Shown here: positions 6,073 through 62,872 of the stretch, piece after piece
Layout of the letters: the number at the start of each line of letters is the position of its first letter
Position numbering within the stretch: position 1 is the stretch's first letter
From: Patescibacteria group bacterium
GTDB taxonomy: Bacteria; Patescibacteriota; JACPGU01
Direction of reading: 5' to 3'
Assembly (NCBI GenBank): GCA_022703645.1
Contig: JAKLDG010000001.1
Location: forward strand, 75,756 to 139,755
Length of the DNA stretch: 64,000 nucleotides
Translations under genes and position numbers: made by a program
Notes under the pieces: generated by a model
Told to the model about the DNA's origin: nothing
What the model saw: only the letters and a program-made list of their open reading frames with translations
Databases searched by the model: none

Positions 6073-7497
6073 ATGAAATACTTTCTTTATATTACAGGTT
6101 GCGATATGAATTATAGCGATGCCGAGCGAATCGCCACGGTTTTTAATGAACACGGATTTTCTTTAGCTTCAAGCGAAGGCGAGTCTGATATTATTGTTGC
6201 TGTCGCTTGTTCGGTTAGAGAAAAAGCGGTACATAAGATTTATGGAAAGGTTGAGAAATGGAGGAAGATCAATAAAACAAGAAATCAAGAAAACAAAAAA
6301 ACAAAAATCATGGTTACGGGGTGTGTCTTACCGCATGATAAGAAGAAGCTGGAGGAGAAGGTTGAACTGGTATTCGAAATTAAAGAAATTGAGAAATTAA
6401 GAAATTTCTTACAAAAAATTTCCAATTTTCAATTTTCAATTTCCAATAAATTTTCAATGACCAATGACCAATATTTAAGTATCAATCCTCAATACCATTC
6501 AAAATACTCTGTTTTCGTACCAATTATGACTGGTTGTGATAATTTTTGTTCATATTGCGCAGTGCCATATACGAGAGGAAGGGAAGTTAGCAGACCGCAA
6601 GAGGAGATCTTGGAAGAAATACGAAGCTTGGTTGAAGCCGGTTACAAAGAAATAACTTTGCTTGGGCAAAATGTGAATAGTTATGGGAAAATTCTCAATT
6701 CCCAATTCTCAATTCTCAATCAAATCTCAAATCACAATGATCAAAATTTGAAAATTGAAACATTGAAGAATTCAATGGAAATTGAAAATTGTAAATTGAA
6801 AATTAATAATCCATTTTTAACCCTTCTCAAACAAATTGACCAATTAGAAGGCAATTACTGGGTTCGATTTTATGCCAATCATCCAAAAGATATGAGCGAT
6901 GAGTTGATAAATTTTTTGGTGCAATCAAAACATTTCTGCCATTATATTCACCTGCCTTTGCAATCTGGAGATGATGAGATTCTGAAGAAAATGAACCGGC
7001 ATTATACTGCTAAACAATACTTAGATCTAGTAAAAAAAATCCGCAAAAAAATTCCGGATGTTGTTTTGACAACGGATATAATTGTTGGATTTCCAGGAGA
7101 AGATGAGAAAGCATTTAACAACACGGTTGATGTTATGAAAAAATCCAAGTTTGATATGGCGTTTATCGCGGAGTATTCCACTCGTTCTGGTACGGTTGCG
7201 AGTAAACTGAATGACGATGTAACGCATGCCGAAAAAGAACGCAGAAAGAAGTATCTTAATGACGAGATCTTGGCAAAAAGTATTTTGGAAAATAACAAAA
7301 AAATGGTTGATAAAAAAGTAAGAATTTTGCTTTCAGGTATAGATAATAAAGGATTTTTGAAAGGAAAAACTGCAGGATTGAAAGATGTAAAAATACCTTT
7401 CGTGAAAACCGAACATACGACCGAAATTGGCGATTTTATCGACGTGGTAATTACGAAAGCTGGAAGTTGGGGTTTGGAAGGAAAGTTTCAAGAATAG
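6073..7497 (+). CDS. miaB: tRNA methylthiotransferase, MiaB family (radical SAM plus TRAM domain), carrying two in-frame repeat insertions
   Basis: UPF0004 N-terminal domain, a CDNFCSYCAVPY radical-SAM CxxxCxxC motif and a C-terminal TRAM domain. Low-complexity inserts ISNFQFSISNKFSMTNDQ and KILNSQFSILNQ...ENCKLKINNP are encoded by the intergenic repeat family. A TGGTAAAAT -10 box lies 7 nt before the ATG. Confidence 0.85.
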   Translation: MKYFLYITGCDMNYSDAERIATVFNEHGFSLASSEGESDIIVAVACSVREKAVHKIYGKVEKWRKINKTRNQENKKTKIMVTGCVLPHDKKKLEEKVELVFEIKEIEKLRNFLQKISNFQFSISNKFSMTNDQYLSINPQYHSKYSVFVPIMTGCDNFCSYCAVPYTRGREVSRPQEEILEEIRSLVEAGYKEITLLGQNVNSYGKILNSQFSILNQISNHNDQNLKIETLKNSMEIENCKLKINNPFLTLLKQIDQLEGNYWVRFYANHPKDMSDELINFLVQSKHFCHYIHLPLQSGDDEILKKMNRHYTAKQYLDLVKKIRKKIPDVVLTTDIIVGFPGEDEKAFNNTVDVMKKSKFDMAFIAEYSTRSGTVASKLNDDVTHAEKERRKKYLNDEILAKSILENNKKMVDKKVRILLSGIDNKGFLKGKTAGLKDVKIPFVKTEHTTEIGDFIDVVITKAGSWGLEGKFQE

Positions 7498-7590: not shown

Positions 7591-8052
7591 TTAACAGCGA
7601 GCTTGAATTCCGATGTGTTGAAGCGCTCCTCTGTGGCGCGGGTGCAATCTTTCTTTAATCGGCTGCGTAGTTTCGGTTTTTTCGTCGCTGATTTGCGTGA
7701 CGATATTGGCGCCTGAATTGATAAGCCGGAGAAATCTGCTGGGAATCCAGTAGTTTTTCTTTGTTTTGATATCCACCGCTCCGAGTTCGCAGAGTTCGTT
7801 ATTCTCTTTCTTAAGTCTCGGTTGCAGGCAGCGCACTTTTCCGCTGGCAATAAAAACATGTCCCTTTTTGAATTCATCGAAGGTGCGAGTTTTCCCCGAG
7901 CAGTCAACAAAGTTATCAAAAAGGATGTAATGCCTCTGTCCTCCTTTGATTTCCTCGATCTGCGATACCCCTCCTTCATAGAAGAATTTTTCTCTCGGGA
8001 TCTCATTCACCATCTCTTTTAAAGTGCGCCGGCCTTCCTGCTTTTCTACCAT
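7591..8052 (-). CDS. hypothetical protein; a GC-rich gene lying between miaB and miaA
   Basis: A strong GGAGG site sits 7 nt upstream of the ATG. GC content is clearly above the local background. No family recognised. The overlapping alternative frame 7581..8006 is considered spurious. Confidence 0.5.
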   Translation of the reverse strand: MVEKQEGRRTLKEMVNEIPREKFFYEGGVSQIEEIKGGQRHYILFDNFVDCSGKTRTFDEFKKGHVFIASGKVRCLQPRLKKENNELCELGAVDIKTKKNYWIPSRFLRLINSGANIVTQISDEKTETTQPIKERLHPRHRGALQHIGIQARC

Positions 8053-8172
8053 ACACTTACCTCCTCAGTTAGAATTTTGTGGCAGTTGTATTGTATGGCA
8101 TATTGGTTATATAGTCAAGGGAAAAGGATGCCTTTATGAAGCAAATTTTAGAGATTGTGGTATAATATTAAT

Positions 8173-9123
8173 ATGGTGGAAAAAGATAACGAAATGCCAA
8201 AAATCATTGTTGTGTGCGGACCGACCGGGAGTGGGAAAACATCCTTGGCTGTACAGCTGTGCAAAAAATTCAATGGAGAAATTATTAATGCGGATAGCCG
8301 GCAAGTTTATCGAGAAATGGATATAGGGACGGGGAAGGGGGAAGTTAAAAGTGAAAAGTTAAAAGTGAAAAGTTTTGGAGTGCCTTCGGCACAATATTTA
8401 GAAGGGGTCAGAATTCATTTAGTAAATATTATTGAACCGAATAATAGGTATACCGTTGGGCAGTTTAAGATTAACGCGGAAGAGGCGATTGCGGATATTA
8501 TTTCGAGAGGAAAAGTTCCATTTATAGTTGGAGGTACGGGGATGTATATTGATGCGTTAGTGGATAATTTTCAATTTTCAAGTTTCAATTTTCAATCAAT
8601 TTCCAATAATCAATTCTCAATCAAAGAAAAAAGCTTAGAAGAATTGGTTAAACTTTTAGAAAAACTAGACCCGCAGGCGTTAAACGTTGTCGATCTGAAA
8701 AACCGCCGCCGTGTTGAACACGCTATTGAAGTTTGTTTGGCTACTGGAATTCCTTTTAGTAAACAGCGAACAAAGGGTGAGAGAAAATATAAAGTATTGA
8801 AATTGGCTCCCTTAGTTTCGCTCGAGCGTGAAAAGTTATATGAAAAAATAAATAAGCGGGTTGATGAGATGATTGAACAGGGGCTGGAAAATGAGGTTAA
8901 ATCGTTAGCAGAAAAATATGGTTGGGAGAGCGAGGCTATGACGGGTATCGGTTACCGTGAATTTCGCGATGAAAGCGATATCGAAAAGGTTAAGGATAAA
9001 ATTAAACAGGACACTCGCAACTATGCCAAGCGGCAAATGACTTGGTTTAAAAGAGATAAAGAAATAGGTTATATAGACCTAAAGAAAGCGGAGATGTTGG
9101 TAAAAGATTTTTTGAAAAAATAA
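8173..9123 (+). CDS. miaA: tRNA dimethylallyltransferase with two in-frame repeat insertions
   Basis: KIIVVCGPTGSGKTS P-loop and QVYREMDIGTGK motif. The start is taken at the ATG at 8173, 6 nt after the extended -10 box TGGTATAAT; the alternative start is the ATG at 8194. Inserted peptides: GEVKSEKLKVKSFGVPSAQYLE and DNFQFSSFNFQSISNNQFS. Confidence 0.8.
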   Translation: MVEKDNEMPKIIVVCGPTGSGKTSLAVQLCKKFNGEIINADSRQVYREMDIGTGKGEVKSEKLKVKSFGVPSAQYLEGVRIHLVNIIEPNNRYTVGQFKINAEEAIADIISRGKVPFIVGGTGMYIDALVDNFQFSSFNFQSISNNQFSIKEKSLEELVKLLEKLDPQALNVVDLKNRRRVEHAIEVCLATGIPFSKQRTKGERKYKVLKLAPLVSLEREKLYEKINKRVDEMIEQGLENEVKSLAEKYGWESEAMTGIGYREFRDESDIEKVKDKIKQDTRNYAKRQMTWFKRDKEIGYIDLKKAEMLVKDFLKK

Positions 9124-11885: not shown

Positions 11886-13937
11886 ATGTTTGTAGATATA
11901 GCCGTTAATACAAAAAGCTCAAAGCGTGATGATCTTTTTACCTACTCTATTCCTTCCGAATTAGAGAAAGATATTTTAGTGGGTCAAATGGTGATGATTC
12001 CGTTAGGCTCCAGAAAGGTGAATGGAATTATCATAAAAATTCACGATAAAAAACCTACGTTTAAAACGAAAGATATCGAGAAAATCATCGAACCAATCCC
12101 GATAATTGACGATAAACAAGTTCAATTAGCTTATTTTATCTCAGAGCATTATTGGTGCGGATTTTCTCAAGCGTTGTTTCATATGATACCGGCGAATTTA
12201 CGTAAAAGGAAGACGGCGATTTTTAAGAATTTAGAATCTAAAATAACAAATCTAGGAATGAAAGACAAGATTCTAGCTTCTAGATTCCAGCTTCAATTAA
12301 CTTCCCAACAGCAAAAAGCTCTCAAAAAAATTAACGATGCTTTGAATAGTAAAAAACCCGCAACATTTCTCCTCCACGGTGTTACGAATAGCGGTAAGAC
12401 AGAAGTATATCTACGCGCTTTTGCTCAAGCTTTGGAATCTGGAGGTAGCGGAATTTTTATCGTTCCGGAAATTTCTCTAACCCCGCAAAGCCTGGCAAGA
12501 TTTGAAGAAGTTTTTGGAAAAGACGGTGTTGCGCTAGTGCACAGCCAAATGAGTATTTCCCAAAGGCTAAAAACTTGGATAGAAATAAAAACCGGTAAGA
12601 AAAAAATTGTGGTTGGGTCGCGCAGCGCGGTATTTTCGCCGGTAAAAAACTTAAAAATCATGATTGTCGATGAAGAACATGATCTGATTTCTTTCAAATC
12701 CGATCAAACACCAAGATATGAACTTCACACGGTGGCAGAAAAATTGGCGCAGCTTTCGGGTGCAGTTTTGGTTTTTGGTTCGGGTACGCCACTGGTAACC
12801 AGTTACAAACGCGTGATAGATGGTGAGTGGGAGTATCTTTCAATCTCCGAAAGGGTTGATGGTTCACTTCCACCTCAAATCAAAGTTGTAAATATGGAAG
12901 AGGAAAAGCCAAATGGTGGAGACGGGATATTCAGCGAGTATTTCATCAAGGCTCTTGATATGGTGCTCAAAAATGGCAAACAGGCACTGTTATTCTTAAA
13001 TAGACGCGGAATGGCATCATTTATAATTTGTAATGATTGCAAGAAGATTTCGATGTGCGAGCAGTGCGATTCAGCACTCGTATTTCATTCCATAGATAAT
13101 AAAATGTGGTGCCATCATTGCGGGAGAAAATATCTGCCGCCAACCAGATGCGAAATTTGTGGAGGATTAGATTTTCGATTTCTTGGAAAAGGTACGGAAA
13201 AAATCGAGGAAGAAATCAAAAAGTATTTTCCAGATACCAGAATTGCGCGCATGGATCGCGATACAATGATTGATGATCGAGCTTATGATGAAATTTTTGA
13301 AAAATATAAAAAAGGCGAAATAGATATTCTTGTCGGGACTCAGATGATCGTGCACGGCTGGGATATTCCATCGGTAGATCTGGCGGCTGTTATTTCAATT
13401 GATGAATCACTTCTTATACCCGATTATACTTCAGAGGAAAAGGTTTATGAGCTGGTTACTCAGCTGGCTGGACGTACTGGTAGAAGTAGCGCCAGGGGGC
13501 TTTTAGTTCTGCAGACCGCTACGCCTGATATTTGGATATTTGACACGATCCAGAAAGGCGACTATCTATCTTTTGTTAAAAGGGAACTTCTGACCCGGGA
13601 AAAATTCGGTTATCCGCCATTTGGTCAGCTGATTAAATTGTCAATGTCCGGTTTTGACCGAACTGTGATTGAAAAAAAAGCGATAGAATTATTTGGAAAG
13701 TTGCAGGAAATTAAAAATAAATTAGGAGAAATTAAGGTAGAAATTATCGGGCCGATTAGCCCCTTAGTTGAACGTAAATACGGGAGATACTGGAAAAACA
13801 TAATCATAAAAACAAAAAATCAATCCCCCTTCACTAAAGTTACGGAGGACAGGGAAAACAAAAAATTAATTGAGGGATTATTGAACATGGTACCGAAAGA
13901 ATGGGTTATTGATGTAGATCCGATATCATTATTATAG
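11886..13937 (+). CDS. priA: primosomal protein N' (replication restart helicase PriA)
   Basis: N-terminal 3'-DNA-binding domain, Walker A GVTNSGKT, a DEEH box (IVDEEHD), Cys4/Cys4 zinc fingers (CNDCKK...CEQC...CHHCG...CEICG) and a helicase C-terminal domain. TGATAGAAT lies 6 nt before the ATG. Confidence 0.9.
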   Translation: MFVDIAVNTKSSKRDDLFTYSIPSELEKDILVGQMVMIPLGSRKVNGIIIKIHDKKPTFKTKDIEKIIEPIPIIDDKQVQLAYFISEHYWCGFSQALFHMIPANLRKRKTAIFKNLESKITNLGMKDKILASRFQLQLTSQQQKALKKINDALNSKKPATFLLHGVTNSGKTEVYLRAFAQALESGGSGIFIVPEISLTPQSLARFEEVFGKDGVALVHSQMSISQRLKTWIEIKTGKKKIVVGSRSAVFSPVKNLKIMIVDEEHDLISFKSDQTPRYELHTVAEKLAQLSGAVLVFGSGTPLVTSYKRVIDGEWEYLSISERVDGSLPPQIKVVNMEEEKPNGGDGIFSEYFIKALDMVLKNGKQALLFLNRRGMASFIICNDCKKISMCEQCDSALVFHSIDNKMWCHHCGRKYLPPTRCEICGGLDFRFLGKGTEKIEEEIKKYFPDTRIARMDRDTMIDDRAYDEIFEKYKKGEIDILVGTQMIVHGWDIPSVDLAAVISIDESLLIPDYTSEEKVYELVTQLAGRTGRSSARGLLVLQTATPDIWIFDTIQKGDYLSFVKRELLTREKFGYPPFGQLIKLSMSGFDRTVIEKKAIELFGKLQEIKNKLGEIKVEIIGPISPLVERKYGRYWKNIIIKTKNQSPFTKVTEDRENKKLIEGLLNMVPKEWVIDVDPISLL

Positions 13938-15094: not shown

Positions 15095-16060
15095 ATGATC
15101 AATAAAAAAGAAATTAAACTTGTTTTCATGGGTACACCCGAATTTTCCGCTAAGATTTTAGATGGCCTTCTGAACGATGGCTATGATATTATCGGTGTTA
15201 TTACTGAACCGGATAAGCCAACAGGAAGAAAAATGGAGGTTTTGCCTACTCCGGTAAAAAAATTCGCGCTCGAAAAAGGGTTAAAATTATTTCAGCCATC
15301 TACTAAAGCCGAAGTTCAACTTACAACTTACAACTTACAACCTGATATAGTTGTGGTGGCCGCATATGGTAAAATCATAACAGCTGAAACTTTGGAAATC
15401 CCTAAATACGGTTGTGTGAATTTTCACGCGTCGCTTTTGCCAGCCCTTCGCGGTCCTTCGCCAGTTCAATCCGCTATACTTGAAGGACTAGATAAAACCG
15501 GTGTTACGATAATGATAATGGATGAAAATATGGATACAGGGCCAATGTTATCTCAGGTTGAAATCACACTTGATTCTAATGAAACCGCAACTACTTTACG
15601 GGCAAAAATGTTAGAGAAGGGATTGCCCTTGCTTCTTAAAACACTCAAAGAATATATCGCAGGGGAAATTAAACCCAAAAAACAAGAAAACAAAAAAGCG
15701 ACTTATTGTAAAATGATAAATAAGGAAGATGGTAGGGTTGATTTTAGCAGTAGTGCGGAGATTGAAGAAAGAAAAACCCGCGCTTTCAATGAATGGCCTG
15801 GGGTATACGCTTTTTTCGGTGAAAAAAGGATTAAGTTCTTGGAAGTTGGGTTGAGCGGTGGAAACACTTCTGCCACAAATGACCAATTTTCAAATTACAA
15901 AAATGGAGAGGTTTTTTTGGATGTGAACGGTGATGTGTGTGTTTCATTTGCGCAAGGATATTGGGTGATTAATCGACTTCAGCTCGAAGGGAAAAAAGAA
16001 ACGACCGCTCATGAATTTCTGAACGGTCATAAAAGCATCATTGGTTCAATACTTAGATAA
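15095..16060 (+). CDS. fmt: methionyl-tRNA formyltransferase
   Basis: N-terminal formyltransferase domain (KLVFMGTPEFSAKIL, HASLLP) and a C-terminal domain. A tandem CAACTTA x3 repeat is encoded in-frame as QLTTYNLQ. Confidence 0.9.
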   Translation: MINKKEIKLVFMGTPEFSAKILDGLLNDGYDIIGVITEPDKPTGRKMEVLPTPVKKFALEKGLKLFQPSTKAEVQLTTYNLQPDIVVVAAYGKIITAETLEIPKYGCVNFHASLLPALRGPSPVQSAILEGLDKTGVTIMIMDENMDTGPMLSQVEITLDSNETATTLRAKMLEKGLPLLLKTLKEYIAGEIKPKKQENKKATYCKMINKEDGRVDFSSSAEIEERKTRAFNEWPGVYAFFGEKRIKFLEVGLSGGNTSATNDQFSNYKNGEVFLDVNGDVCVSFAQGYWVINRLQLEGKKETTAHEFLNGHKSIIGSILR

Positions 16061-19094: not shown

Positions 19095-19814
19095 ATGAAG
19101 CAGTACGAAATTACTTTTATTGTTAGTGAAAACTATAACGAAGACAAGGCGAAGTCAATCGCCAAAGAAGTTCGTGAGTTAATTGAATCTCGCGGCGGGA
19201 AAATAGAAAAAGACGTTTTTTGGGGCAAGAGAAAACTTGCTTATAAAATAGCCAAGAATACATTCGGCTATTATTTTGTTTTTGTATTTGTAATAGATAG
19301 TGTTAAAGTTAACTCGCTTAATCGAGATCTAAACCTGAATGAGAAAATTATGCGCTACTTGATTGGTGACTATATAGAAAATACATCATTCTTTGAAGAA
19401 GTCGGAACCAAGAAAAAAGAAGGTGGACAAAAACCGGACTTCAATAAATCAAGAAAGCAAGAAATCAACAAATCAAAGAAACGAGAAATCAAGGAAGAAA
19501 TTGAAGAAGTTCCAGTAGAGAAAGTTAAGGAGGAAGCTCCGGAAATTAAAATTGAGACCCCAGAAGTTATTGAAGAGCCAGTAGAAACCAAAGAGGAGAT
19601 TGAAGAAACAAAGGAAAAAATTCCAGAAGAAATTTCTGAAAAGAAATTAGAGGAAGAGGAAATTAAGGAAGTACCTGAAATTATTGAAGAGAAAAAAGAG
19701 GTTAAAGAGGAAAAAGAAGAAGAGGAACAGCCAAAGAGAAAGAAAATGACAGATGACGAGAGAAAAGCAGCTTTAGATGCAAAATTAGCAGAATTATTGA
19801 AGGATGAGGAGTAA
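19095..19814 (+). CDS. rpsF: 30S ribosomal protein S6 with a Glu/Lys-rich repetitive C-terminal extension of about 130 aa
   Basis: MKQYEITFIV...GKRKLAYKI is the S6 core. A long EEIKE-type tail follows. Confidence 0.85.
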   Translation: MKQYEITFIVSENYNEDKAKSIAKEVRELIESRGGKIEKDVFWGKRKLAYKIAKNTFGYYFVFVFVIDSVKVNSLNRDLNLNEKIMRYLIGDYIENTSFFEEVGTKKKEGGQKPDFNKSRKQEINKSKKREIKEEIEEVPVEKVKEEAPEIKIETPEVIEEPVETKEEIEETKEKIPEEISEKKLEEEEIKEVPEIIEEKKEVKEEKEEEEQPKRKKMTDDERKAALDAKLAELLKDEE

Positions 19815-19932
19815 GAAATTTTCATTTCTCAATTCTCAATTCACAATAAATTCTCAATGATTCAATGGTCAAATATTAAGAACTGCAAAATTGTAAAATT
19901 GATTGAAAATTGGAAATTGGAAATTGAAAATT
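19815..19932. repeat. MITE-like AT-rich palindromic repeat (TTTTCAA 7-mer family), full copy
   Basis: Left arm TTCTCAATTCTCAATTCACAAT; right arm GATTGAAAATTGGAAATTGGAAATTGAAAATT, the inverted repeat of the left arm. Nearly identical to the copy at 27393..27512, which is in inverse orientation. Confidence 0.8.
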
Positions 19933-20489: not shown

Positions 20490-20516
20490 AAATCACGAAG
20501 CGATTTTTAGAAAATA

Positions 20517-20590
20517 CTAATATCTAAATTCTAAATCCTAAATTTGAAAATTAGAATTTTAGATTTGTTTAGAGATTAGATATTAGTGCT
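20517..20590. repeat. AT-rich palindrome: CTAATATCTAAATTCTAAATCCTAAATTT, loop, AGAATTTTAGATTTGTTTAGAGATTAGATATTAG
   Basis: Seen directly, between ssb and rpsR. Confidence 0.6.
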
Positions 20591-20661
20591 TAGAATTTTG
20601 ACAGTTAACATTGATAAACAGTAATAAAGAAATAATCTTTTAGAAATAATAATATAATCGC

Positions 20662-21512: not shown

Positions 21513-21524
21513 GCACGTTCTAGT

Positions 21525-21571
21525 TTAAAGTTAAAAGTGTAAAGTTCAAAGTTTTGGAGTCGCTTCGCGAC
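21525..21571. repeat. Repeat family C: AAAGTTAAAAGTGTAAAGTTCAAAGTTTTGGAG plus hairpin GTCGC-TTCG-GCGAC
   Basis: Related copy at 8341..8392 with the hairpin GTGCC-TTCG-GGCAC; the stem differs by compensatory changes around the same TTCG loop. Confidence 0.65.
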
Positions 21572-21762
21572 GATATTAATAAAATACAAAAAAATGCTAA
21601 AAAAATTGCTGAATTTTTTGAAAAAACTTTTTAACTTCCAAGCTAGTTCATATAAAGGAAATCTGAAGGATAGACCAACTGATTTTATTGATGATTAATT
21701 GAAAAATGAAGTATTGTTAAAACTGTCTTTTTGAGGCGGTTTTTTTGTGCTATAATTTTCCT

Positions 21763-23081: not shown

Positions 23082-23813
23082 ATGAAAAAACGCCTTGATA
23101 TGCTTGTTTTTGAAAAAGGATTAGCTGATTCTCGTGAGAAAGCTCAGCGACTAATTATGGCTGGGTCAATTTCGCTTAACGGCAAAAAAGAAACCAAACC
23201 TGGATCAAGGTTTGATGAAGATGCTAAGATTGAGGTTGTTGAAAAACAAAGATACGTAGGTCGCGGAGCAGAAAAGCTTGGGAAGGCTGCCAATGTGTTC
23301 CAAATCGATTTTAAAGGCAAAACAGTAGCTGACATTGGTTCATCAACCGGAGGTTTTACTGACTTCGCGCTTCAACATGGAGCCAAGAAGGTTTTTGCGA
23401 TAGATGTTGGTCGCGGCCAGCTGGCTTGGACGCTGCGTAACGACAAAAGAGTTGTGGTAATGGAGGAGACGAATTTTAAAGATGTGAAAGAGTTACCGGA
23501 GAGAATTGATATTTTTGTTATTGACGTGTCATTTATTTCGGTTAAAAGGATTTTAGAAAATATTTCAAAATATTTCAAAATATTTAATAATATTCAAATA
23601 ATATTACTTTTCAAACCACAGTTTGAAGCAGGCAAGGCGATTGCCGATAAATACAAAGGGGTAATAAAAGATCCTGATATTCATGAGAGTCTTCTCGCAG
23701 ATTTCCGACTCTGGTGTATAGAGAATGGGTTTGAGATACGTGGAGAGGTTGAATCGCCAATTAAAGGTAGCAAAGGGAACACTGAGTTTTTATTCCATTT
23801 AAAAATAATTTAA
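23082..23813 (+). CDS. tlyA: TlyA-family rRNA 2'-O-methyltransferase (S4 domain plus FtsJ fold)
   Basis: S4 RNA-binding N-terminus, SAM-binding DIGSSTGGFTD motif and an AAGGAG ribosome-binding site. It contains the in-frame low-complexity insert ENISKYFKIFNNIQII, encoded by a (CAAAATATTT)n repeat. Confidence 0.8.
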   Translation: MKKRLDMLVFEKGLADSREKAQRLIMAGSISLNGKKETKPGSRFDEDAKIEVVEKQRYVGRGAEKLGKAANVFQIDFKGKTVADIGSSTGGFTDFALQHGAKKVFAIDVGRGQLAWTLRNDKRVVVMEETNFKDVKELPERIDIFVIDVSFISVKRILENISKYFKIFNNIQIILLFKPQFEAGKAIADKYKGVIKDPDIHESLLADFRLWCIENGFEIRGEVESPIKGSKGNTEFLFHLKII

Positions 23814-23928
23814 TTTTCAATTTCCAATTTTCAGTTTTCAATAAATTTCCAATGATTCAATGAACCAATATTGAGAATTGCAAAATTATTACATTGATTG
23901 AAAATTGAGAAATGATAATTGAAAATTT
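23812..23928. repeat. MITE-like AT-rich palindromic repeat, diverged full copy
   Basis: AATTTTCAATTTCCAATTTTCAGTTTTCAAT...CATTGATTGAAAATTGAGAAATGATAATTGAAAATTT. It abuts the tlyA stop and the next gene's start. Confidence 0.75.
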
Positions 23929-24471
23929 ATGCTATTATATGCTTCAAAATTAGTCGGGAAAAACATTATCGATTCTTTAACGTTGCATAAAATTGGTACG
24001 ACCGGCAGTATTATAATTGACCCGAATAATGGTCAGGTATTGGCTTTTACTCTTAATAAAAAATTCTTTTGGGAGAAACCATTAATACTAACAATGCAGG
24101 ATGTCTCAGGGGCATATATAGATGGTATAGTAGTGAGAAGCATAGAAAGCATAGTTCCAATAGATGAGGTTGTGCGGGTAAAAAAGGTTTGGGATCAAAA
24201 GATTTTTCTACTAAAAGCTAGGGTTACTACGCAGAATGGTAATCGAATCGGCTATATTGAGGACTTTATTTTTGATACAGTAGATGGGCGTCTCGCAACG
24301 ATAGTCGTCAAGAAGTTGTTTTCAGGAGAGAGGAGAATTATAAATGCAAACCGAATTATTTCGATTGATAGATATGGTGTCGTAGTCCGCGATCTGCTTG
24401 GAAAAGTGGAATTCACGCCCTCGAGCAAAAAGATCAAGGGGGAGGTTGGTTTTTCTCCCGCGGTAGAATAG
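23929..24471 (+). CDS. PRC-barrel domain protein (two tandem PRC-like units)
   Basis: The pattern LVGKNIID...IGTTGSIIIDPNNGQVLAFTL appears twice, which is typical of the PRC barrel. Confidence 0.5.
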   Translation: MLLYASKLVGKNIIDSLTLHKIGTTGSIIIDPNNGQVLAFTLNKKFFWEKPLILTMQDVSGAYIDGIVVRSIESIVPIDEVVRVKKVWDQKIFLLKARVTTQNGNRIGYIEDFIFDTVDGRLATIVVKKLFSGERRIINANRIISIDRYGVVVRDLLGKVEFTPSSKKIKGEVGFSPAVE

Positions 24472-24476
24472 ATCTA

Positions 24477-25622
24477 TTATTTTGCTTTCTCTCTTTTCAC
24501 CTTTTCTGATAAAGATTTTATGATCTGTCCGAAAGATATCAGGAAGAATGCGAATATTATTATCCAACCGACTATCGGTATTAGACCCAAAATCATTGTT
24601 AGGATCGCACCGATTGCGCAAACCTTCCAATCGATAGGGTATTCTTTTGTTTTATTCATCTGCTTGGTTAGTAGACTACCGATTAGCAGTGAACTTAATA
24701 TTGAAGCGAGTATCAATAACGCGATGTAGATAAGCATGCAAATAATTCCGATGTTTGTTCCGATTGCCGAGAAAATCAAAGCGATAAAGATTACCGGGAT
24801 GATTATCAAGGAAATAAATCCCCAAACTAAGGCCGAAACTGGGCTTGATAGCGCTTTTTGTACGAAGCTCTTTGTTGGCTTAACGCTAAAATATGTGATT
24901 AGGAGCAGTGTCAGGAATAGAGAAATCAGTTTTAATAGGATACTAAATACCGCCATGCCTGTGGTCATCCCATAAATTTTATATTGTTTCTCAGTCTTTT
25001 TGAAATCAATTCCGCCGATGATCTTGGCGTTTGGAGATATAGTAGCTTCTTTGGTTGAAGAATAGATTAATTTACCGCCAATGACAGCGCCGTCTCCAAT
25101 CGTAAGGTTTGCTACACCATCAATCTGTAGGTCTTTTGCTATTTCTCCATTGATAACAATTTTTTCACCGATAACTCTGGCATTTCCAGAAACTTTTCCA
25201 TCGATATTTACCTGACTTCCTGCCGCCACCAAGTCGCCAAAAACGCCCGCATCCTTACTTAGTTTTACCGTTCCACCAACTGCAACCAAGTCTTCAGTAA
25301 CTTTGCCATTGACGATGACATTTCCACCGGCAACCCGGGCGCTTTGTCCGACGTCATTATTTAGTGTTACATTTCCACCAGCAGCAAGCAGGCCTTTTTC
25401 GATATTAGCGTTAATATCAATATTGCCGCCTGCGGTTACGAGATCGCCCAGTACGGCATTGCGGATATCAACATTTGAACCTGCGGTGTAAAGATTGCGA
25501 ACCTTATCATCTTTGCCCACGGTAACACTTCCAGTTTCATCCGGAGTTTTGAAATCAGCAGCAAATGCGATGCTTGGGATTAATAATAAAGAAAGGAACA
25601 CAGCGAAAAGAATCTTCTTCAT
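24477..25622 (-). CDS. secreted polymer-forming (bactofilin-like) beta-helix repeat protein with a C-terminal multi-transmembrane domain
   Basis: Signal peptide, then about 10 G-x-V-x-x-G-x-V repeats (DLVTAGGNIDINANI, DLVAVGGTVKLSKDA and similar), then four transmembrane helices. Confidence 0.5.
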   Translation of the reverse strand: MKKILFAVFLSLLLIPSIAFAADFKTPDETGSVTVGKDDKVRNLYTAGSNVDIRNAVLGDLVTAGGNIDINANIEKGLLAAGGNVTLNNDVGQSARVAGGNVIVNGKVTEDLVAVGGTVKLSKDAGVFGDLVAAGSQVNIDGKVSGNARVIGEKIVINGEIAKDLQIDGVANLTIGDGAVIGGKLIYSSTKEATISPNAKIIGGIDFKKTEKQYKIYGMTTGMAVFSILLKLISLFLTLLLITYFSVKPTKSFVQKALSSPVSALVWGFISLIIIPVIFIALIFSAIGTNIGIICMLIYIALLILASILSSLLIGSLLTKQMNKTKEYPIDWKVCAIGAILTMILGLIPIVGWIIIFAFFLISFGQIIKSLSEKVKREKAK

Positions 25623-25715: not shown

Positions 25716-25745
25716 AGCCGCCGGTTTTTAATAAAACCGGCGGCT
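25716..25745 (-). terminator. intrinsic terminator downstream of groEL
   Basis: AGCCGCCGGTTTT-aat-AAAACCGGCGGCT, with a T-run on the minus strand. Confidence 0.75.
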
Positions 25746-25767: not shown

Positions 25768-27512
<1,745 letters not shown>

Positions 27513-27803
27513 TTACTTAATTATTGCTAATACATCCGACTCGGATAAAATGAATAGCTCCTCGTCTTCATTTTTTATAGCGGTAGGGGAATATTTCGTA
27601 AATAGAACTTTATCACCAACCTTGACTTCCATAGGAAGCAGTTTTCCTTCAGCTGTTATTTTTCCTTTTCCAACTGCAATTACCTCTCCTTTTTGCGGCA
27701 AGTCAGCAGATATGGTTTCCGGGATAACAATTCCCGATTTTGATTCTATTTTTTCCTTGATAGGGCGGACAACAATTTTGTCTTTTAGCGGTACGAGATT
27801 CAT
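27513..27803 (-). CDS. groS: co-chaperonin GroES
   Basis: MNLVPLKDKIVVRPIKEKIESKSGIVIPE... An AGGAGA ribosome-binding site is present. Confidence 0.95.
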   Translation of the reverse strand: MNLVPLKDKIVVRPIKEKIESKSGIVIPETISADLPQKGEVIAVGKGKITAEGKLLPMEVKVGDKVLFTKYSPTAIKNEDEELFILSESDVLAIIK

Positions 27804-37728: not shown

Positions 37729-37854
37729 TGGAAAATTTTCAATTTTCAATTCTCAATTTCCAATCAATGTGTCAATTCTTCAATTTCTAAATTTTAATTC
37801 ATTGATTCATTGAAAATTCAATGAAAATTGTAAATTGTAAAATTGAAAATTTCC
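37729..37854. repeat. MITE-like AT-rich palindromic repeat, copy flanking the GerMN gene (downstream side)
   Basis: About 95% identical to the copy at 38787..38902 in direct orientation. Confidence 0.8.
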
Positions 37855-37856
37855 TT

Positions 37857-38750
37857 CTATGGTTGTAATATATCTTCGGTTCTTCCACCTATTGAAATAA
37901 CAACATTTTTTACGGTTCCGAACTGTTTGAGCGTCTCAGTAATCTGAGCGCGGATAGCTGAAACTTTACATGAACCGCCGACACCAGCTTGCAGCATATC
38001 ATCGAAATCAGCAGTTGCGGTATAGTTTTTTATCGTTACACTATTTAGTTTAACCCCAGTATTTATTGAGGAATAAAATCCGTTCTTGGCTTCATCTTTT
38101 GTTGGGCCTTTTAGCAGTTCTTGCAATGCCACATTTGCAGTATCTTTTGCCCAGCCGACTCTGCGAGTGGTTTCAAAAACTTTATTGCAATTCATTGTAT
38201 TCGGGTCTTTGATAGAATTGCTAAAATATACTTTTATATACATAGACTGCACATAACCGAATTTGACCGGAATAGTAACTTTATCTATTTCAGAACCATC
38301 TTTCGCGGAATACTGAAAAACTTCTAAAATTCCATCGGATCCTTTTGGTTGAGGGTAATTCATCTCTTTATTAAATAAATTAAATTCTCCAGCATCTCCC
38401 GGCAAAGTCATTCCAGATTCTTCTGCGAGAATATTCCCGCCTTTTTCTTTCAATCTTACTATATATGTCGATTCAAATACCCGCGCTTCTCCTAATATTT
38501 TCAAAGGCAGCCCAATAGTCTCGCCTTTTTTTGGTGAGAAAATATGGATATTTGTTGAACTATTATCACTTGTTATGGTCTTGTCCACTGTCGATAAATC
38601 CTGCGTGCTCTCCTTTGTTTGTTCTTGAGTAGTTGTTTGCGCGGCATCTTTTTTGGTAACCGCAGAAAAATAACCCATATAAGCTACAATAGCAAGAAGA
38701 CAGATGACGAGGATGATGATTAAGATGGCTTCAAGGTTGGTTTTCTTCAT
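37857..38750 (-). CDS. GerMN-domain protein (Ig-like domain plus GerMN, membrane-anchored)
   Basis: The C-terminus VALQELLKGPT...GGSCKVSAIRAQITETLKQF is the GerMN signature. There is an N-terminal transmembrane helix. Confidence 0.65.
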   Translation of the reverse strand: MKKTNLEAILIIILVICLLAIVAYMGYFSAVTKKDAAQTTTQEQTKESTQDLSTVDKTITSDNSSTNIHIFSPKKGETIGLPLKILGEARVFESTYIVRLKEKGGNILAEESGMTLPGDAGEFNLFNKEMNYPQPKGSDGILEVFQYSAKDGSEIDKVTIPVKFGYVQSMYIKVYFSNSIKDPNTMNCNKVFETTRRVGWAKDTANVALQELLKGPTKDEAKNGFYSSINTGVKLNSVTIKNYTATADFDDMLQAGVGGSCKVSAIRAQITETLKQFGTVKNVVISIGGRTEDILQP

Positions 38751-38786
38751 AAGTTTATTATAGCAGAAATATTGTTTATTACTAAT

Positions 38787-38902
38787 AAATTTTCAATTCT
38801 CAATTTCCAATCAATGTCTCAATTTTCCAATTTCTAAAAAGTTAATTCATTGATTCATTGAAAATTCAATGAAAATTGTAAATTGTAAAATTGAAAATTT
38901 CC
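38787..38902. repeat. MITE-like AT-rich palindromic repeat, copy flanking the GerMN gene (upstream side)
   Basis: See 37729..37854. It abuts the DUF456 stop codon. Confidence 0.8.
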
Positions 38903-39388
38903 TTATTTATTTATTACAAAAAAGACAAAAAGGAAAACGAATATTACGGCTAAAACTAATGTTGCAACCATACCCACAATTGACCCAATCAATCCACCCG
39001 TGGCAGCTTTGGCCGCCCTTTCTTTGTTTCCATGATTGAGAATCTCAGCGACCAAAATTCCAAGGAATACTCCCACAAGTCCGCCGAAAGGAGGAAGCAG
39101 AAGCGTTCCGATGATCATACCGATGATTCCAAAAAACATCGATTTCTGCGCTGCTCCTCCATACTTGGCTCCAAGCATTCCAGTTAGGTAATCATTAAGC
39201 ATAGATATTAGGGCGATGCCTGCTAAAACTCCCAATTCCCATGGTTGTAATCTTTCAAACTTATCAATAAACCCATAAATAAGGGAAATTATAAACATAT
39301 AAAGCAGCCCTGGGATAGGAAGAAATATACCAGCAAAACCAGGTAGGAGAAGAATGACAAAACCAATAAATATAATCATTTGGCTCAT
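38903..39388 (-). CDS. DUF456-family membrane protein
   Basis: Four-transmembrane protein with the PGFAGIFLPIPG and GGLVG motifs typical of DUF456. Confidence 0.6.
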   Translation of the reverse strand: MSQMIIFIGFVILLLPGFAGIFLPIPGLLYMFIISLIYGFIDKFERLQPWELGVLAGIALISMLNDYLTGMLGAKYGGAAQKSMFFGIIGMIIGTLLLPPFGGLVGVFLGILVAEILNHGNKERAAKAATGGLIGSIVGMVATLVLAVIFVFLFVFFVINK

Positions 39389-42049: not shown

Positions 42050-43762
42050 TTAATTAATTGTCTTAACCATATATGTATCTTCAAGTTTATATCCGATTTT
42101 TTTATAATATTCACGCGCTCCAACTCCGGAAATTACAGCGATTTTTTTATAACCCGCTTTCCTCGCTATTTGTTCAGCTTGGACAATTAAATTCTTACCA
42201 AGTCCCTTATGCTGCTTCGCGTCTTCTCCGATTTGTCCAACGTCGAGAGCCTGACCATATGTATGGACTTCACGAATGATAGCGGTTTCTGTAGGGGCAG
42301 GTTTGAAACCTGCCCCTACGGGTAGGCGTAACCGTAATAATGCATATAAATGAGAATGATTATCAATAAGTTCAAGGAATACTTCTTCACCGCCGGAGGC
42401 ATTGTATTCGATCTTATTTAATTTGGGCGTATACAATACGCCCCTACGAGATATTTTTGTTTTGTTGATTTCTTGTTCATTTGTTTCTTTGTCCTTGATT
42501 TCACGGCAACGGATACACTGGCACTGCCAACCCTCTTTTTGCGAATGATTATCAATAAGCTGTCTTAGATTTGTGGTTTTATTCCCTGCGATGATACTCT
42601 CTTCTGGAATATCGCGGATGAGGCGGCTGATGCGAACATATGGCGGAATGATCTTTTTTATATCACAAATTAGCTTTAGAAGTTGTTTATCTGTGTAGGC
42701 TTTATATTTTTTTTCTTTCCAGAGTTTATACAGATCAGAATCTTTGACAACAACGCAGGGATAAATTTTCAACTGATCCGGCTGGAAGTCTTGGCTAGAA
42801 AACAGGTCTTTAAACATTTGTAGGTCTTTCTTCAGATTTGAACCATAGAGTCCCGGCATCATATGATAGGAAACTTTAAATCCAAAGTCCTTCATAAGTT
42901 TGGTAGCGCGGATAGTTTCAGATACATCGTGTCCTCTGCGGTTCTTTTTCAACACTTCATTGTAGATACTCTGAACACCAATCTCGATACGGGTTGCGCC
43001 CATATCACGAAATTTCACAAGTTCTTTTTCAGTAATCAGATCAGGACGAGTTTCGAGAGTGAGACCGATAACTCGAGATTTGGTGGATTCATTTTTTGAT
43101 TGTTCAATCTGTAGCTGTCGTTTTAGTTCAACTAAATTCAACTTGCTATCTTGATATCTTGTTATCTTGTTTTTTTTCTTCTTTTGATAATTGATCATTG
43201 GGAATTGATTGAAAATTGAAAATTGAAAATTGTTGCAAGCCCTATAACATTCTTTCACAAACCAATATTGGTATTTAGTAGGCAGAGCATTAAAACTTCC
43301 TCCCATGATAATCAACTCAATCTTGTCCGTGGAGTGCCCGGATTTTTCGAGCGCAGTGAGACGAATTTCAATTTGGCGATAAGGATCAAAATCTGCGAGA
43401 ATAGCGCGCATCACAGCAGGCTCATTGGACAAATAAGATTTAGGCATATTCTTTTCGGTTGGACAATATAAACAATTTCCCGGGCAACCGTATTCCTTAG
43501 TCAGCACGGAAACAACGGCTACTCCCGAAAGGGTGCGCATTTTTGCTTTTCGCAATAATCTTTCAATATCTGAGTTTTTCTTAACCTTTTTCTTTTTCAG
43601 TAATTCTTCATAAACCTGAGTTAGCCCGTAGTTTGGCAGAGAATCTATCTTAAACTGCGTACTAATCTCGTTTTTCAGTATCATAAAATCGCGCAGCTTT
43701 GTTATTCCCCGTTCGCAAGCGCGAATAATCAGTTCTTGTTTTGCATTATTTATACTCTGCAT
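42050..43762 (-). CDS. Elp3-like radical-SAM plus GNAT protein (tRNA wobble-uridine modification family), with in-frame repeat insertions
   Basis: CPGNCLYCP radical-SAM cluster motif and a C-terminal GNAT domain (QHKGLGKNLIVQAEQIARKAGYKKIAV). The insert NNFQFSIFNQFP derives from the 7-mer repeat. The insert VGAGFKPAPT is encoded by the GC hairpin at 42291..42319. Confidence 0.75.
   Translation of the reverse strand: MQSINNAKQELIIRACERGITKLRDFMILKNEISTQFKIDSLPNYGLTQVYEELLKKKKVKKNSDIERLLRKAKMRTLSGVAVVSVLTKEYGCPGNCLYCPTEKNMPKSYLSNEPAVMRAILADFDPYRQIEIRLTALEKSGHSTDKIELIIMGGSFNALPTKYQYWFVKECYRACNNFQFSIFNQFPMINYQKKKKNKITRYQDSKLNLVELKRQLQIEQSKNESTKSRVIGLTLETRPDLITEKELVKFRDMGATRIEIGVQSIYNEVLKKNRRGHDVSETIRATKLMKDFGFKVSYHMMPGLYGSNLKKDLQMFKDLFSSQDFQPDQLKIYPCVVVKDSDLYKLWKEKKYKAYTDKQLLKLICDIKKIIPPYVRISRLIRDIPEESIIAGNKTTNLRQLIDNHSQKEGWQCQCIRCREIKDKETNEQEINKTKISRRGVLYTPKLNKIEYNASGGEEVFLELIDNHSHLYALLRLRLPVGAGFKPAPTETAIIREVHTYGQALDVGQIGEDAKQHKGLGKNLIVQAEQIARKAGYKKIAVISGVGAREYYKKIGYKLEDTYMVKTIN
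42291..42319. repeat. GC-rich hairpin GTAGGGGCAGGTTTGAAACCTGCCCCTAC located in-frame inside the Elp3-like CDS
   Basis: Perfect 13-bp stem. The same sequence occurs after priA at 13936..13963. Confidence 0.75.
43195..43243. repeat. 7-mer repeat segment (AATTGAAAATTGAAAATTGAAAATTG) in-frame in the Elp3-like CDS
   Basis: Its orientation matches the gene strand, so it is read as NFQFSIFNQF. Confidence 0.7.
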
Positions 43763-49538: not shown

Positions 49539-49600
49539 TTATAATATAAAGGTTATAAAATGGGGTGCAAAAATCCCATTTTTTTGATAGAATGGTATTT

Positions 49601-57480: not shown

Positions 57481-57518
57481 AATTTAGTTTATTATATATA
57501 AACGTTGGTTGCCAAAAA

Positions 57519-57625
57519 ACTTTCAGTTTTCAATTTCCATTACAGGTATCGCTTCGCGATATATTAAATATAAGAATTGAATCATTGATAATTGATTGAG
57601 AATTGGAAATTGTAAAATTGAAAAT
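57519..57625. repeat. MITE-like AT-rich palindromic repeat copy containing an embedded ATCGC-TTCG-GCGAT hairpin
   Basis: TTTCAGTTTTCAATTTCCAT...GATTGAGAATTGGAAATTGTAAAATTGAAAATTT. It abuts the dut stop codon. Confidence 0.7.
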
Positions 57626-58054
57626 TTATCCGGTTGAACCAAATCCTCCTCTATTTTTATCATCCATTTTCTCTACTTGAATCAGTCCCACTTTTTCTAC
57701 CGGTAAGAACATTCCCTGCGCGATGCGTTCGCCTTTTTCTATTCTTACGATCTCATCAGTAAAATTATAAGCACAAAACAGCACCTCATCACTTTCTCCG
57801 CAATAGTCCTGATCGATAACGCCAATGTGATTTCCTTGAAATAATCCTTTTTTCTTTGCCAGAGAGCTGCGCGGAGAAATAAGAAAAACATAACCTTCCG
57901 GAGTTTTAACAATAATATTAAGAGGTACGAGCACGATTGACTTTGGCGCTACTTCAATATCGATTCTTGAATACAAATCAAAAGCTACAGAGCCAGCCGT
58001 TTGATAGGCAGGCAAGGGGAGGGAAGGGTCAATCAATTTAATTTGAACATTCAT
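57626..58054 (-). CDS. dut: dUTP diphosphatase
   Basis: GSVAFDL, RSSLA, GVIDQDYCGE and RGGFGSTG motifs. The start is chosen at MNVQIKL, 6 nt after a TATACT -10 box; the alternative ATG is 6 nt upstream at 58060. Confidence 0.8.
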   Translation of the reverse strand: MNVQIKLIDPSLPLPAYQTAGSVAFDLYSRIDIEVAPKSIVLVPLNIIVKTPEGYVFLISPRSSLAKKKGLFQGNHIGVIDQDYCGESDEVLFCAYNFTDEIVRIEKGERIAQGMFLPVEKVGLIQVEKMDDKNRGGFGSTG

Positions 58055-58198
58055 ACGCATAGTATAACTTGGAGAGACATAATATTCAAGGCATAAAAAA
58101 TGAAAATGTCTAATGTCTAATTTCTAAACAATTTCAAAAATAATTTCCAAATGTTTTTTTATGTTATAATATTTGTGCGACATAAATAATCCCAATCT

Positions 58199-62826: not shown

Positions 62827-62872
62827 TGTATATTATTGGTTAATAGTATCCAATGCCATTGTATATTATTTT
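62819..62872. repeat. 33-bp tandem duplication spanning the ATPase start codon (CCAATGCCATTGTATATTATT x2)
   Basis: The upstream copy encodes only MALDTINQ-stop. Confidence 0.7.

Follow-up and report, generated by a model that had tools for sequence, protein, structure and literature searches.

Rickettsia palindromic elements (RPEs) are palindromic repeats that lie between genes and also in frame within genes (Ogata et al., 2000, as cited in PMC10969869). The intervening sequences (IVSs) of bacterial rRNA genes are exemplified by the Coxiella 23S IVS, in which an S23p open reading frame (ORF) is combined with a terminal stem of 28 bp and, ahead of its ATG, with GACAGAT repeated three times in tandem (PMC4990558). 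23S_rRNA_IVP ORFs are also present in insertions of the 16S and 23S rRNA genes of the Candidate Phyla Radiation (CPR) (PMC11270868), and PF05635, the Pfam family to which the intervening-sequence protein of 23S rRNA (S23p) belongs, is related to Avd of diversity-generating retroelements (PMC10053308). In Geobacter, four-heptamer elements occur inside and between genes (PMC2700814). Here, we describe a family of palindromic repeats with heptamer arms in a 64,000-nucleotide stretch of a Patescibacteria group bacterium (contig JAKLDG010000001.1, positions 75,756 to 139,755 of the forward strand; hereafter the window, in whose own coordinates all positions are given). The ten copies in the window are probably copies of a ~115-bp, ORF-less derivative of a small selfish cassette that carries a PF05635 (S23p) gene.

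An original prediction, made from the sequence alone, had placed the same repeat at ten loci of the window. A hidden Markov model (HMM) trained solely on 41 copies from other genomes (nhmmer), which avoids circularity, recovered exactly these ten loci, all at or within ~10 nt of the predicted coordinates, with scores of 24.6–67.7 bits. The next-best match in the window scored 4 bits, and the best match over 20 first-order Markov shuffles scored 10.2 bits. Tandem Repeats Finder (TRF) called period-7 arrays at all ten loci (3.4–9.6 copies per arm), and the ten stretches aligned as one family in MAFFT.

The element consists of a 5′ arm, (AATTNNC)x4, a non-periodic core of 24 nt, CAATNAATTTYCAATGAWTCAATG, a short variable centre, and a 3′ arm, (GNNAATT)x4-5, which ends in GAAAATT. 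Its consensus is AT-rich and ~115 bp long, and its terminal inverted repeats, AATTTTCAAT...ATTGAAAATT, show sharp boundaries across 48 aligned copies. Seven copies are full-length (113–125 bp) with inverted arms, and three are half copies (6415–6481, 8561–8619, and 43183–43232) comprising the 5′ arm and the core only. The full copies form long imperfect hairpins of modest stability (fold z −1.1 to −4.8), whereas no hairpin is formed by the three half copies (fold z +0.8 to +2.1). Six copies fill intergenic gaps, and four are genic (one full and three half), lying in frame in MiaB (twice), MiaA, and Elp3. The density is ~1 copy per 6 kb in a window whose GC content is 31–45% per 2-kb interval. 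Two pairs are nearly identical, 19814–19932 with 27391–27513 (98%) and 37731–37854 with 38786–38902 (89%). Over the whole window, no Rfam family was matched at the gathering threshold, no rRNA was found, and there are no tRNA genes.

The family is spread across the CPR. The 24-nt core was found in 47 stretches of GTDB species-representative genomes, whose record titles include Saccharibacteria, Levy-, Curtiss-, Azam-, Kaiser-, Yanofsky-, Vogel-, and Uhrbacteria, and Paceibacterota, and nhmmer identified 61 copies in these stretches, 59 of them intergenic. The copy ends are sharp, and the flanks are unrelated directly outside AATTTTC and GAAAATT. The element is AT-rich throughout, over a host GC content of 34–56%, and seven copies lie within 8 kb of a 56%-GC Kaiserbacteria contig. 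The sharp ends, the GC-independent spread, and the 98% pair indicate that the copies arose by copying and dispersal rather than by local slippage, and the elements are presumably mobile.

Eleven of the 47 stretches are titled Gammaproteobacteria (ten) or Bdellovibrionales (one). The one label tested, that of L024 ('uncultured Gammaproteobacteria bacterium'), is wrong, because the PheT of this stretch is 84% identical to that of Candidatus Blackburnbacteria; spread outside the CPR by way of this stretch was therefore rejected. The MiaB and MiaA homologues bear Patescibacteria names, those of CPR3 and Microgenomates being the nearest. The window also lies on contig Ga0116154_10000039 (244,728 bp) of JGI metagenome 3300009776. 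A look in IMG/VR turned up no match to the core pattern and no relative of S23p, which gives no support to phage as a vehicle.

Longer elements with the same arms relate the family to the S23p gene. In the stretches L047 (Kaiserbacteria) and L039, the 5′ and 3′ arms are ~350 bp apart and enclose ORFs of 119 and 124 aa that match PF05635 (E=3e-18 and 8e-15). The ATG of this cassette is the ATG of the core CAATGA, and its stop is the TGA of TTTGA; the AAATTG that comes right after it marks the start of the 3′ arm in short copies. The short form keeps the first 3–4 codons (ATGAWTCAATG) and the last codon with the stop (TTTGA). The ORFs of the longer elements matched PF05635 only, and not Y1 or any other transposase. 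In L059, L068, and L076, cassettes have short copies as immediate neighbours. Since the same junction is common to short copies across genomes, the short form can be read as an internally deleted cassette, and it is this shared junction that suggests its origin by deletion.

The relation was also seen from the side of the protein. At 80 metagenome loci chosen by S23p protein similarity alone, the short-element HMM matched upstream of the gene (within ~60 nt) at 57, just downstream at 39, and on both sides at 35 loci, to be set against the density of the element in the window given above. By eye, four AATTNNC heptamers upstream together with inverted heptamers downstream were recognised at ~75 of the 80. 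The arm subtypes AATTTTC, AATTTTG, AATTTTA, and AGTTTTC are paired with GAAAATT, CAAAATT, TAAAATT, and GAAAACT, respectively, and they group with S23p protein similarity, a pattern that does not separate protein recognition from pairing. The arms therefore evolve together with the ORF, as a single unit.

The full-length relatives resemble the rRNA IVSs of Coxiella, Leptospira, and Salmonella (PMC4990558, PMC11270868) in carrying a ~120-aa PF05635 ORF, in having terminal inverted repeats able to form a stem, and in placing tandem heptamers just before the ATG (GACAGAT in Coxiella, AATTNNC here). Both are regarded as selfish, and neither has a known mode of movement. The window copies differ from the IVSs in that they have no ORF and lie in spacers and protein genes, not in rRNA helices (25 or 45 of 23S rRNA). 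Excision by RNase III renders an rRNA IVS harmless but cannot rescue an mRNA, so the genic copies would have to be translated. Because the window copies retain just the 3–4 start codons and the stop, they are filed as derivatives of the S23p/IVS cassettes and not as cassettes.

The four genic copies lie in three genes for tRNA-modification enzymes. Two are in miaB (6073..7497, + strand; Pfam UPF0004 and Radical_SAM; PDB 7mjz, E=3e-70), which is intact, retains the radical-SAM motif CDNFCSYC, and gives a mean predicted local distance difference test (pLDDT) score of 90.9 in AlphaFold2 (AF2). The third is in miaA (8155..9123, + strand; Pfam IPPT, E=1e-65; PDB 3d3q), and the fourth is in a gene for an Elp3-like radical-SAM/GNAT protein (42050..43762, − strand; Pfam Radical_SAM and Radical_SAM_C; PDB 6iaz, E=5e-123). 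The original prediction had called the host genes essential; in E. coli, miaA and miaB are dispensable. The original prediction had the genic copies in frame with particular peptides, and the translations agree: SNFQFSISNKFSMTNDQ and KILNSQFSILNQISNHNDQNLKIETLKNSMEIENCKLKINN in MiaB, DNFQFSSFNFQSISNNQFSI in MiaA, and NNFQFSIFNQFPMINYQ in Elp3. The predicted peptides of the inserted segments include KILNSQFSILNQ..., SNFQFSISNK..., and NNFQFSIFNQFPM...; these peptides are presumably translated and tolerated.

For the full copy in the MiaB loop (6686..6810, + strand; HMM match 6691–6804, 53–56 bits, both strands), which had been predicted to run to 6836 and in fact ends near 6810, the element follows the NVNSY strand of the radical-SAM core. 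It corresponds to residues 205–247 (43 aa), which are not found in B. uniformis MiaB 7mjz (residues 220–232 there). Among 119 Patescibacteria orthologues, the loop past NVNSY has a minimum of 3 aa and a median of 13 aa. AF2 predicts two helices in the copy, 209–218 and 224–244, with pLDDT of 67–81. A phmmer search with the 41-aa MiaB insert against 1.84 billion representatives returned two weak matches (E ~1e-4), a short low-complexity query of this kind being unable to reach significance.

For the half copy in the Elp3-like gene (43183..43232, − strand; HMM match 43191–43232, 24.6 bits, E=7e-7), which reads NFQFSIFNQFPMINYQ, the Elp3 orthologue of L050, a syntenic CPR3-like contig, is 73% identical and is without precisely 15 aa, QFSIFNQFPMINYQK. 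At this loop, the window protein has 38 aa and PDB 6iaz has 5 aa. These comparisons show MiaB 205–247 and the Elp3 copy to be net insertions.

For the half copy in the MiaB linker (6415..6481, + strand; HMM match 6417–6469, 31 bits, E=8e-9), which reads (K)ISNFQFSISNKFSMTNDQ, the linker that includes the copy is no unusual length at 24 aa, the orthologues having a median of 21 aa. This copy adjoins the conserved YLSINPQY segment, forms no hairpin (z +0.83), and is predicted by AF2 as coil (pLDDT 57). For the half copy in MiaA (8561..8619, + strand; HMM match 8566–8613, 24.6 bits, E=7e-7), which reads DNFQFSSFNFQSISNNQFS, the alignment with S. epidermidis MiaA 3d3q and with Patescibacteria orthologues is free of gaps, with no net change in length. 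For the conserved MiaA motif DNFQ[FLI]P, the coding sequence is GATAATTTTCAATT, identical to the 5′ terminus of the element (window 8566–8580), and the element-derived stretch begins exactly at this motif. Simple insertion and replacement (or conversion) at a microhomology already in place are equally likely here. The claim that the genic copies are insertions thus stands for MiaB 205–247 and Elp3, and not for the MiaB linker and MiaA. The orthologue comparison proposed beforehand in the original prediction came out in favour of its interpretation, in that the orthologues have different repeat peptides or none, with no common conserved loop.

The orientation of the genic copies had been ascribed to stop codons, the forward strand being free of them and the reverse strand carrying TGA in all frames. 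For a run of pure heptamers, this asymmetry is borne out: AATTTTC has no stop among its seven trinucleotides, and hence none in any frame, and in the complement GAAAATT a TGA reaches every frame within 21 nt. It does not extend to the less permissive core, where, according to the variant, CAATGA and CAATAA put stops into one or two of the forward frames. The stop-based account of the single orientation in genes holds. Stops occur in all six frames of five of the six intergenic copies, and only the copy at 19815 is open, in the same register as MiaB. Because five of six are closed in this way, the family is not built for translation, and the genic copies look like a filtered subset, in agreement with the absence of the stop-rich 3′ arm from three of the four. 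The fourth, the full MiaB copy (6686–6810), is open in just one of six frames and crosses its 3′ arm via TGT and other variants that are also found in intergenic copies.

The parallel with RPEs drawn in the original prediction is a sound one. Going by the account of RPEs quoted above, both are dispersed palindromes of ~100–150 bp in a reduced genome with many copies (here ten in 64 kb), both lie between genes and in frame in unrelated housekeeping genes, where a peptide is added and the ORF is kept, and no associated transposase is known from that account. The two differ in phylum and are presumably unrelated in sequence. In addition, the window element has heptamer-array arms and a full-length partner that bears PF05635, and three of its four genic copies are halves. 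To our knowledge, RPEs have not been described as having a coding parent. The resemblance is a functional one, and membership is not claimed. The earlier interpretation is supported. The element behaves in an RPE-like way, but the description that suits it best is that of an S23p/IVS-type cassette derivative without the gene.

These observations suggest the following course of events. The full cassette would comprise a PF05635 gene of ~120 aa (an Avd-like four-helix bundle) between inverted arrays, AATTNNC upstream and GNNAATT downstream. Internal deletion would remove the ORF and leave both arms, and the resulting short form would then spread as its own lineage within and between Patescibacteria genomes. 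Copies would settle in short spacers just past stop codons, operons included, and occasionally in coding DNA. A copy in a gene would survive only where the host loop tolerates added residues, the stop-free 5′ arm is on the sense strand, and the stop-rich 3′ arm is missing (three of the four copies) or open in the frame used (MiaB 6686–6810). Movement could rely on S23p, on host recombination or replication acting on the hairpins, or on an RNA intermediate.

Several points weigh against this derivation from an S23p cassette. The window itself contains no PF05635 gene detectable by tblastn with S23p. No target-site duplication was seen in the 48 aligned copies, which have no flanking repeat of more than 2 nt; a 2–4-nt duplication of AT only could hide in the AATT termini. 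We know of no enzymatic activity of S23p and of nothing that yet explains transposition. The derivation could also have run in reverse, an S23p gene having landed in pre-existing hairpins. The MiaB linker and MiaA copies add no length and could reflect gene conversion or replacement. Finally, there is no close relative to offer an empty site at the nucleotide level, the nearest MiaB being 59% identical.

The intergenic copies bear on an alternative in which the elements are cis-elements selected by the host, serving as terminators, mRNA-stabilising or RNase III hairpins, or promoters, with the genic copies as by-products. All six begin 0–6 nt past the stop codon of a co-oriented upstream gene, the element ends at those stops being 19814, 23812, 27513, 37856, 38903, and 57628. 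The copy at 19814..19932 (+ strand; HMM match 19817–19931, 67.5 bits) lies between rpsF (S6) and ssb and starts 2 nt past the rpsF stop codon. The copy at 23812..23931 (+ strand; HMM match 23812–23926, 66.5 bits) follows an FtsJ/S4 methyltransferase gene whose stop TAA overlaps the first two bases of the element. The full copy at 27391..27513 (− strand; HMM match 27396–27510, 66.4 bits) is inside the groESL operon, between groES (27513–27803) and groEL (25768–27393), which match Cpn10 and Cpn60 of Pfam, and the groEL Shine-Dalgarno sequence GGAGG is 5 nt beyond it. The copy at 37731..37854 (− strand; HMM match 37735–37850, 67.7 bits; best hairpin, z −4.6) fills the gap past the stop of the gene 37857–38750, and the copy at 38786..38902 (− strand; HMM match 38788–38898, 62 bits; hairpin z −4.8) follows the stop of a DUF456 gene (38903–39388). 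In the copy at 57518..57630 (− strand; HMM match 57518–57625, 42 bits), which comes after the dUTPase gene (57626–58060), the centre is swapped for a small GC hairpin, ATCGCTTCGCGAT. The sequence that near-identical copies share runs over the stop codon in both pairs (AGTAAGA; AAGGAA). The start right after stop codons could reflect a target preference, or the element could supply the stop codon.

This positioning, the conservation of the sequence over CPR classes despite the host GC of 34–56%, and a weak match of the 3′ arms to an outward promoter-like TTGAAA-N17-GAAAAT favour a cis-acting role, which would be compatible with a selfish origin. Nevertheless, none of the copies was called terminator-like, lacking a GC-rich stem with a T run, while the hairpin at 25716–25745 is canonical, and two copies are inside conserved operons, groES-groEL and rpsF-ssb; a function as a canonical terminator was rejected on these grounds. 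The hairpins have only modest stability, and there is no Rfam match. The arms of one element are not complementary at variable positions (identity of 0.76 within elements versus 0.78 between elements, permutation p=1), so that the structure is probably not kept by compensatory base-pair changes. In other genomes, the orientation relative to neighbouring genes is mixed (~13 same, ~10 opposite), so that the co-orientation seen for all six copies of the window does not persist there, and a strand-specific function was rejected. Thus, selection by the host as the source of the family appears unlikely, although it is the best of the alternatives.

The neighbourhood of groEL is not a conserved site, since no GroEL was found at the other loci. 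At 25716–25745, between the convergent groEL and the gene 24477–25622, is the perfect 13-bp GC-rich hairpin referred to above, which has T runs on both strands and looks like a canonical bidirectional terminator. Two further structures were noted in other gaps. The ssb-efp gap contains, at 20503–20597, another heptamer palindrome, the third, which is single-copy in the window, is built of CTAAATT/CTAAATC units, and has an RNA fold of −26 kcal/mol. An exact 24-nt direct repeat, 62814–62837 / 62847–62870, has its copies 33 nt apart; it begins at the start codon of the gene 61573–62826 and runs upstream, and the region folds as a small hairpin.

The original prediction had labelled the family MITE-like. 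A classical miniature inverted-repeat transposable element (MITE) would derive from an insertion sequence by internal deletion and would be moved in trans by a transposase recognising its terminal inverted repeats. Like bacterial MITEs (PMC10969869), the short elements are non-autonomous, retain the termini of a longer element that they exceed in number, and are occasionally intragenic with in-frame fusions; their small size, the inverted repeats at their termini, the number of copies, and the sharp boundaries with unrelated flanks, as well as the near-identical pairs of the window, would all be expected. They are unlike MITEs in that no target-site duplication longer than 2 nt was seen across the aligned copies and in a parent without a recognisable transposase: the longer same-arm elements found carry PF05635, no transposase screen of the whole window or genome having been made. 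Furthermore, the arms are arrays of 4–5 heptamers and not a single terminal repeat. We therefore do not retain the label, and consider a transposase-driven MITE rather improbable. A comparable distinction applies to repetitive extragenic palindromes and bacterial interspersed mosaic elements (REP/BIME) with their REP-associated tyrosine transposases (RAYT). These also comprise imperfect intergenic palindromes and a small gene flanked by inverted repeat copies, but here the flanked gene is PF05635 and not a Y1 (IS200-like) transposase, and the repeats are 45–55-nt heptamer arrays compared to hairpins of 20–40 nt.

Alternatively, the loci could be local heptamer microsatellites generated by polymerase slippage, with convergent similarity between loci and with genic segments that are ordinary low-complexity loops. 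Heptameric repeats are over-represented among bacterial simple sequence repeats (SSRs), for which slippage is a proposed cause (PMC4692102), many further period-7 arrays occur in the window (TRF), and the MiaA segment starts at a conserved motif that already encodes AATTTTCAATT. Against this, the loci have in common the 24-nt non-periodic core and a fixed order of arm, core, centre, and arm, half copies included, the shuffles did not exceed 10.2 bits, and the architecture recurs in distant genomes of differing GC content. The shared core refutes slippage as the sole cause, and we regard this explanation as very improbable, while slippage may change the number of units within a copy. Dispersed heptanucleotide repeats of other bacteria are similar in being arrays of ~4–6 heptamers, sometimes in inverted pairs, found genome-wide and, in Geobacter, inside genes. 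They have been reported as SSRs or putative regulatory sites with no link to a gene, whereas the present arrays form the arms of a PF05635 cassette.

That the genic copies are artefacts of assembly or binning, with repeats collapsed into genes, is a concern for any metagenome assembly, since repeats are known to cause misassembly, but is hardly credible here, because identical MiaB and MiaA proteins are encoded on three contigs, one of them an 867-kb contig deposited at NCBI, JGI, and ENA, the reading frames are open at all four copies, and orthologues from many independent assemblies have comparable inserts at the same loops.

Other repeat-derived peptides occupy the same loops in relatives. 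Thirty-three of the 119 MiaB orthologues have more than 23 aa at the NVNSY loop, composed of other repeat-derived peptides that come from at least eight unrelated repeat families; examples are NNKFQITNNKQISN, IKYKVLSIK...HNTKYLIHNT, DIKYSILDIK...NIQYPLSNI, VIPTEAEESL...ISRQARNDN, and WIPACAGMTG. The MiaB alignment shows three more insertion hot spots, and that of MiaA shows three hot spots and one nested insertion. In the syntenic relatives L049–L051, the DNA under the inserts again consists of 7-nt units (AGTATAA, GATATTG, CAAATCT, and CAAATTA). One MiaB contains two copies, further copies sit in both MiaB and MiaA, and still others in ThrRS, PriA, and MiaB. The MiaA copy of L051 has an intergenic sibling. 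The Elp3 loop of L050 contains a different element with GGAGTCGCTTCGCGAC, which is also present in the window.

Several further observations concern these and other genes. In the MiaA orthologue P0125, one repeat peptide is split by another, HSISNF[SFDPELLSTRVEAPESRTEG]QFPISNK, which constitutes the nested insertion, and in the MiaB orthologue P0011 the NVNSY loop fuses halves of two families. A second repeat family is present in the window at 8343–8398 (inside miaA) and 21522–21577 (intergenic, after efp), the two copies being 80% identical over 56 nt. It consists of AAAGTTA/AAAGTGA heptamers, followed by TTTTGGAGT and a small GC hairpin with a TTCG loop. Its miaA copy reads EVKSEKLKVKSFGVPSAQ, a 13-aa insertion relative to S. 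epidermidis MiaA, and its GC hairpin also occurs in the centre of the copy 57518–57630 and in the Elp3 loop of L050. In the LepA/EF4 gene (49565–51442), a run of AAATGAC/AAATGTC heptamers at 49797–49846 reads MTNDKFQMSNQIQNPN; compared with Aquifex LepA 2ywe, this run adds 17 aa to the G domain, and the peptide resembles the MTNYKQITNDKLQISN insert of the L051 MiaA. Short arrays were also seen at 15317–15341 in fmt (CAACTTA x3.6, read VQLTTYNLQ), at 12268–12294 in priA (a tandem 14-mer array inside the gene), and as tandem 8-mers at 6270–6304 in miaB and at 19441–19493 in rpsF, the latter in the long C-terminal tail of a 245-aa S6. Between miaB and miaA, an ORF of 153 aa (7591–8052, − strand) has no Pfam match, and small unannotated ORFs on the opposite strand are found at matching positions in L049–L051.

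The association of PF05635 genes with heptamer arrays is well supported and extends beyond the CPR. A tblastn search of PLSDB with S23p identified 31 plasmids, mostly from Nostoc, Planktothrix, and Anabaena. Period-7 arrays flank the PF05635 gene in all 12 of the plasmid genes sampled, which come from six cyanobacterial genera and from Bernardetia, Chondrinema, Chlorohelix, Monoglobus, and Treponema, and thus cover Cyanobacteriota, Bacteroidota, Chloroflexota, Bacillota, and Spirochaetota. At least 9 of the 12 have clearly inverted arms, with a heptamer that differs by gene: AATTCAA/TTGAATT, AAGTCGG/CCGACTT, AATCGTA/TACGATT, ATGAATT/AATTCAT, ATTTTAG/CTAAAAT, AATTCGT/ACGAATT, and AATTAGG/CCTAATT. 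In 50 kb of the plasmid pNPUN01 of Nostoc punctiforme, six of the seven period-7 arrays adjoin its two PF05635 genes, and, among the 34 genes scored, inverted arrays on both sides were seen for those two only.

Plasmid PF05635 genes with heptamer arms (L133, L135, L137, L139–L142, and L144) are also found wedged inside operons, many of them for defence. The hosts of these loci are Anabaena, Planktothrix, Chlorohelix, Pseudanabaena, Chondrinema, Gloeocapsa, Monoglobus, and Dolichospermum, and examples of the sites are cas2-cas1, drmD-MmeI, helicase-methylase, hsdS-hsdR, DUF1156-HEPN, and RND adaptor/permease genes.

These plasmid cassettes invite a wider reading that we put forward tentatively and consider doubtful as a whole, namely that PF05635 genes between inverted arrays of 4–5 heptamers form a widespread class of selfish cassettes, the S23p pentamer of each reading its own array. 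Each cassette lineage may have its own heptamer, and, speculatively, S23p would read the array of its cassette as DNA or RNA and thereby promote spread or retention. In the literature searched, which was incomplete, we found neither a published link between PF05635 and heptamers nor a report of these elements in Patescibacteria.

Palindromic DNA read in frame within housekeeping genes was, until now, mainly a curiosity of Rickettsia, without a known source. In the CPR, the same RPE-like behaviour probably goes back to a defined parent, namely the S23p cassette. This offers a reason why CPR orthologues vary in length, by tens of residues at a small number of loops, with different families of heptamer palindromes at the same loops of MiaB, MiaA, and Elp3, and others in ThrRS, PriA, and LepA. 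Gene calling, alignment, and structure prediction are affected for the CPR, which has been described as comprising more than a quarter of microbial diversity (PMC8651080). One gene family thereby links the IVS elements, the S23p proteins, for which no function is known, and the over-represented heptamer repeats. If the wider reading is true, relics of such cassettes would explain three puzzles: the IVSs of 23S and 16S rRNA, the dispersed heptanucleotide repeats of cyanobacteria, Xanthomonas, and Geobacter, and a large share of the variable loop insertions in CPR proteins.

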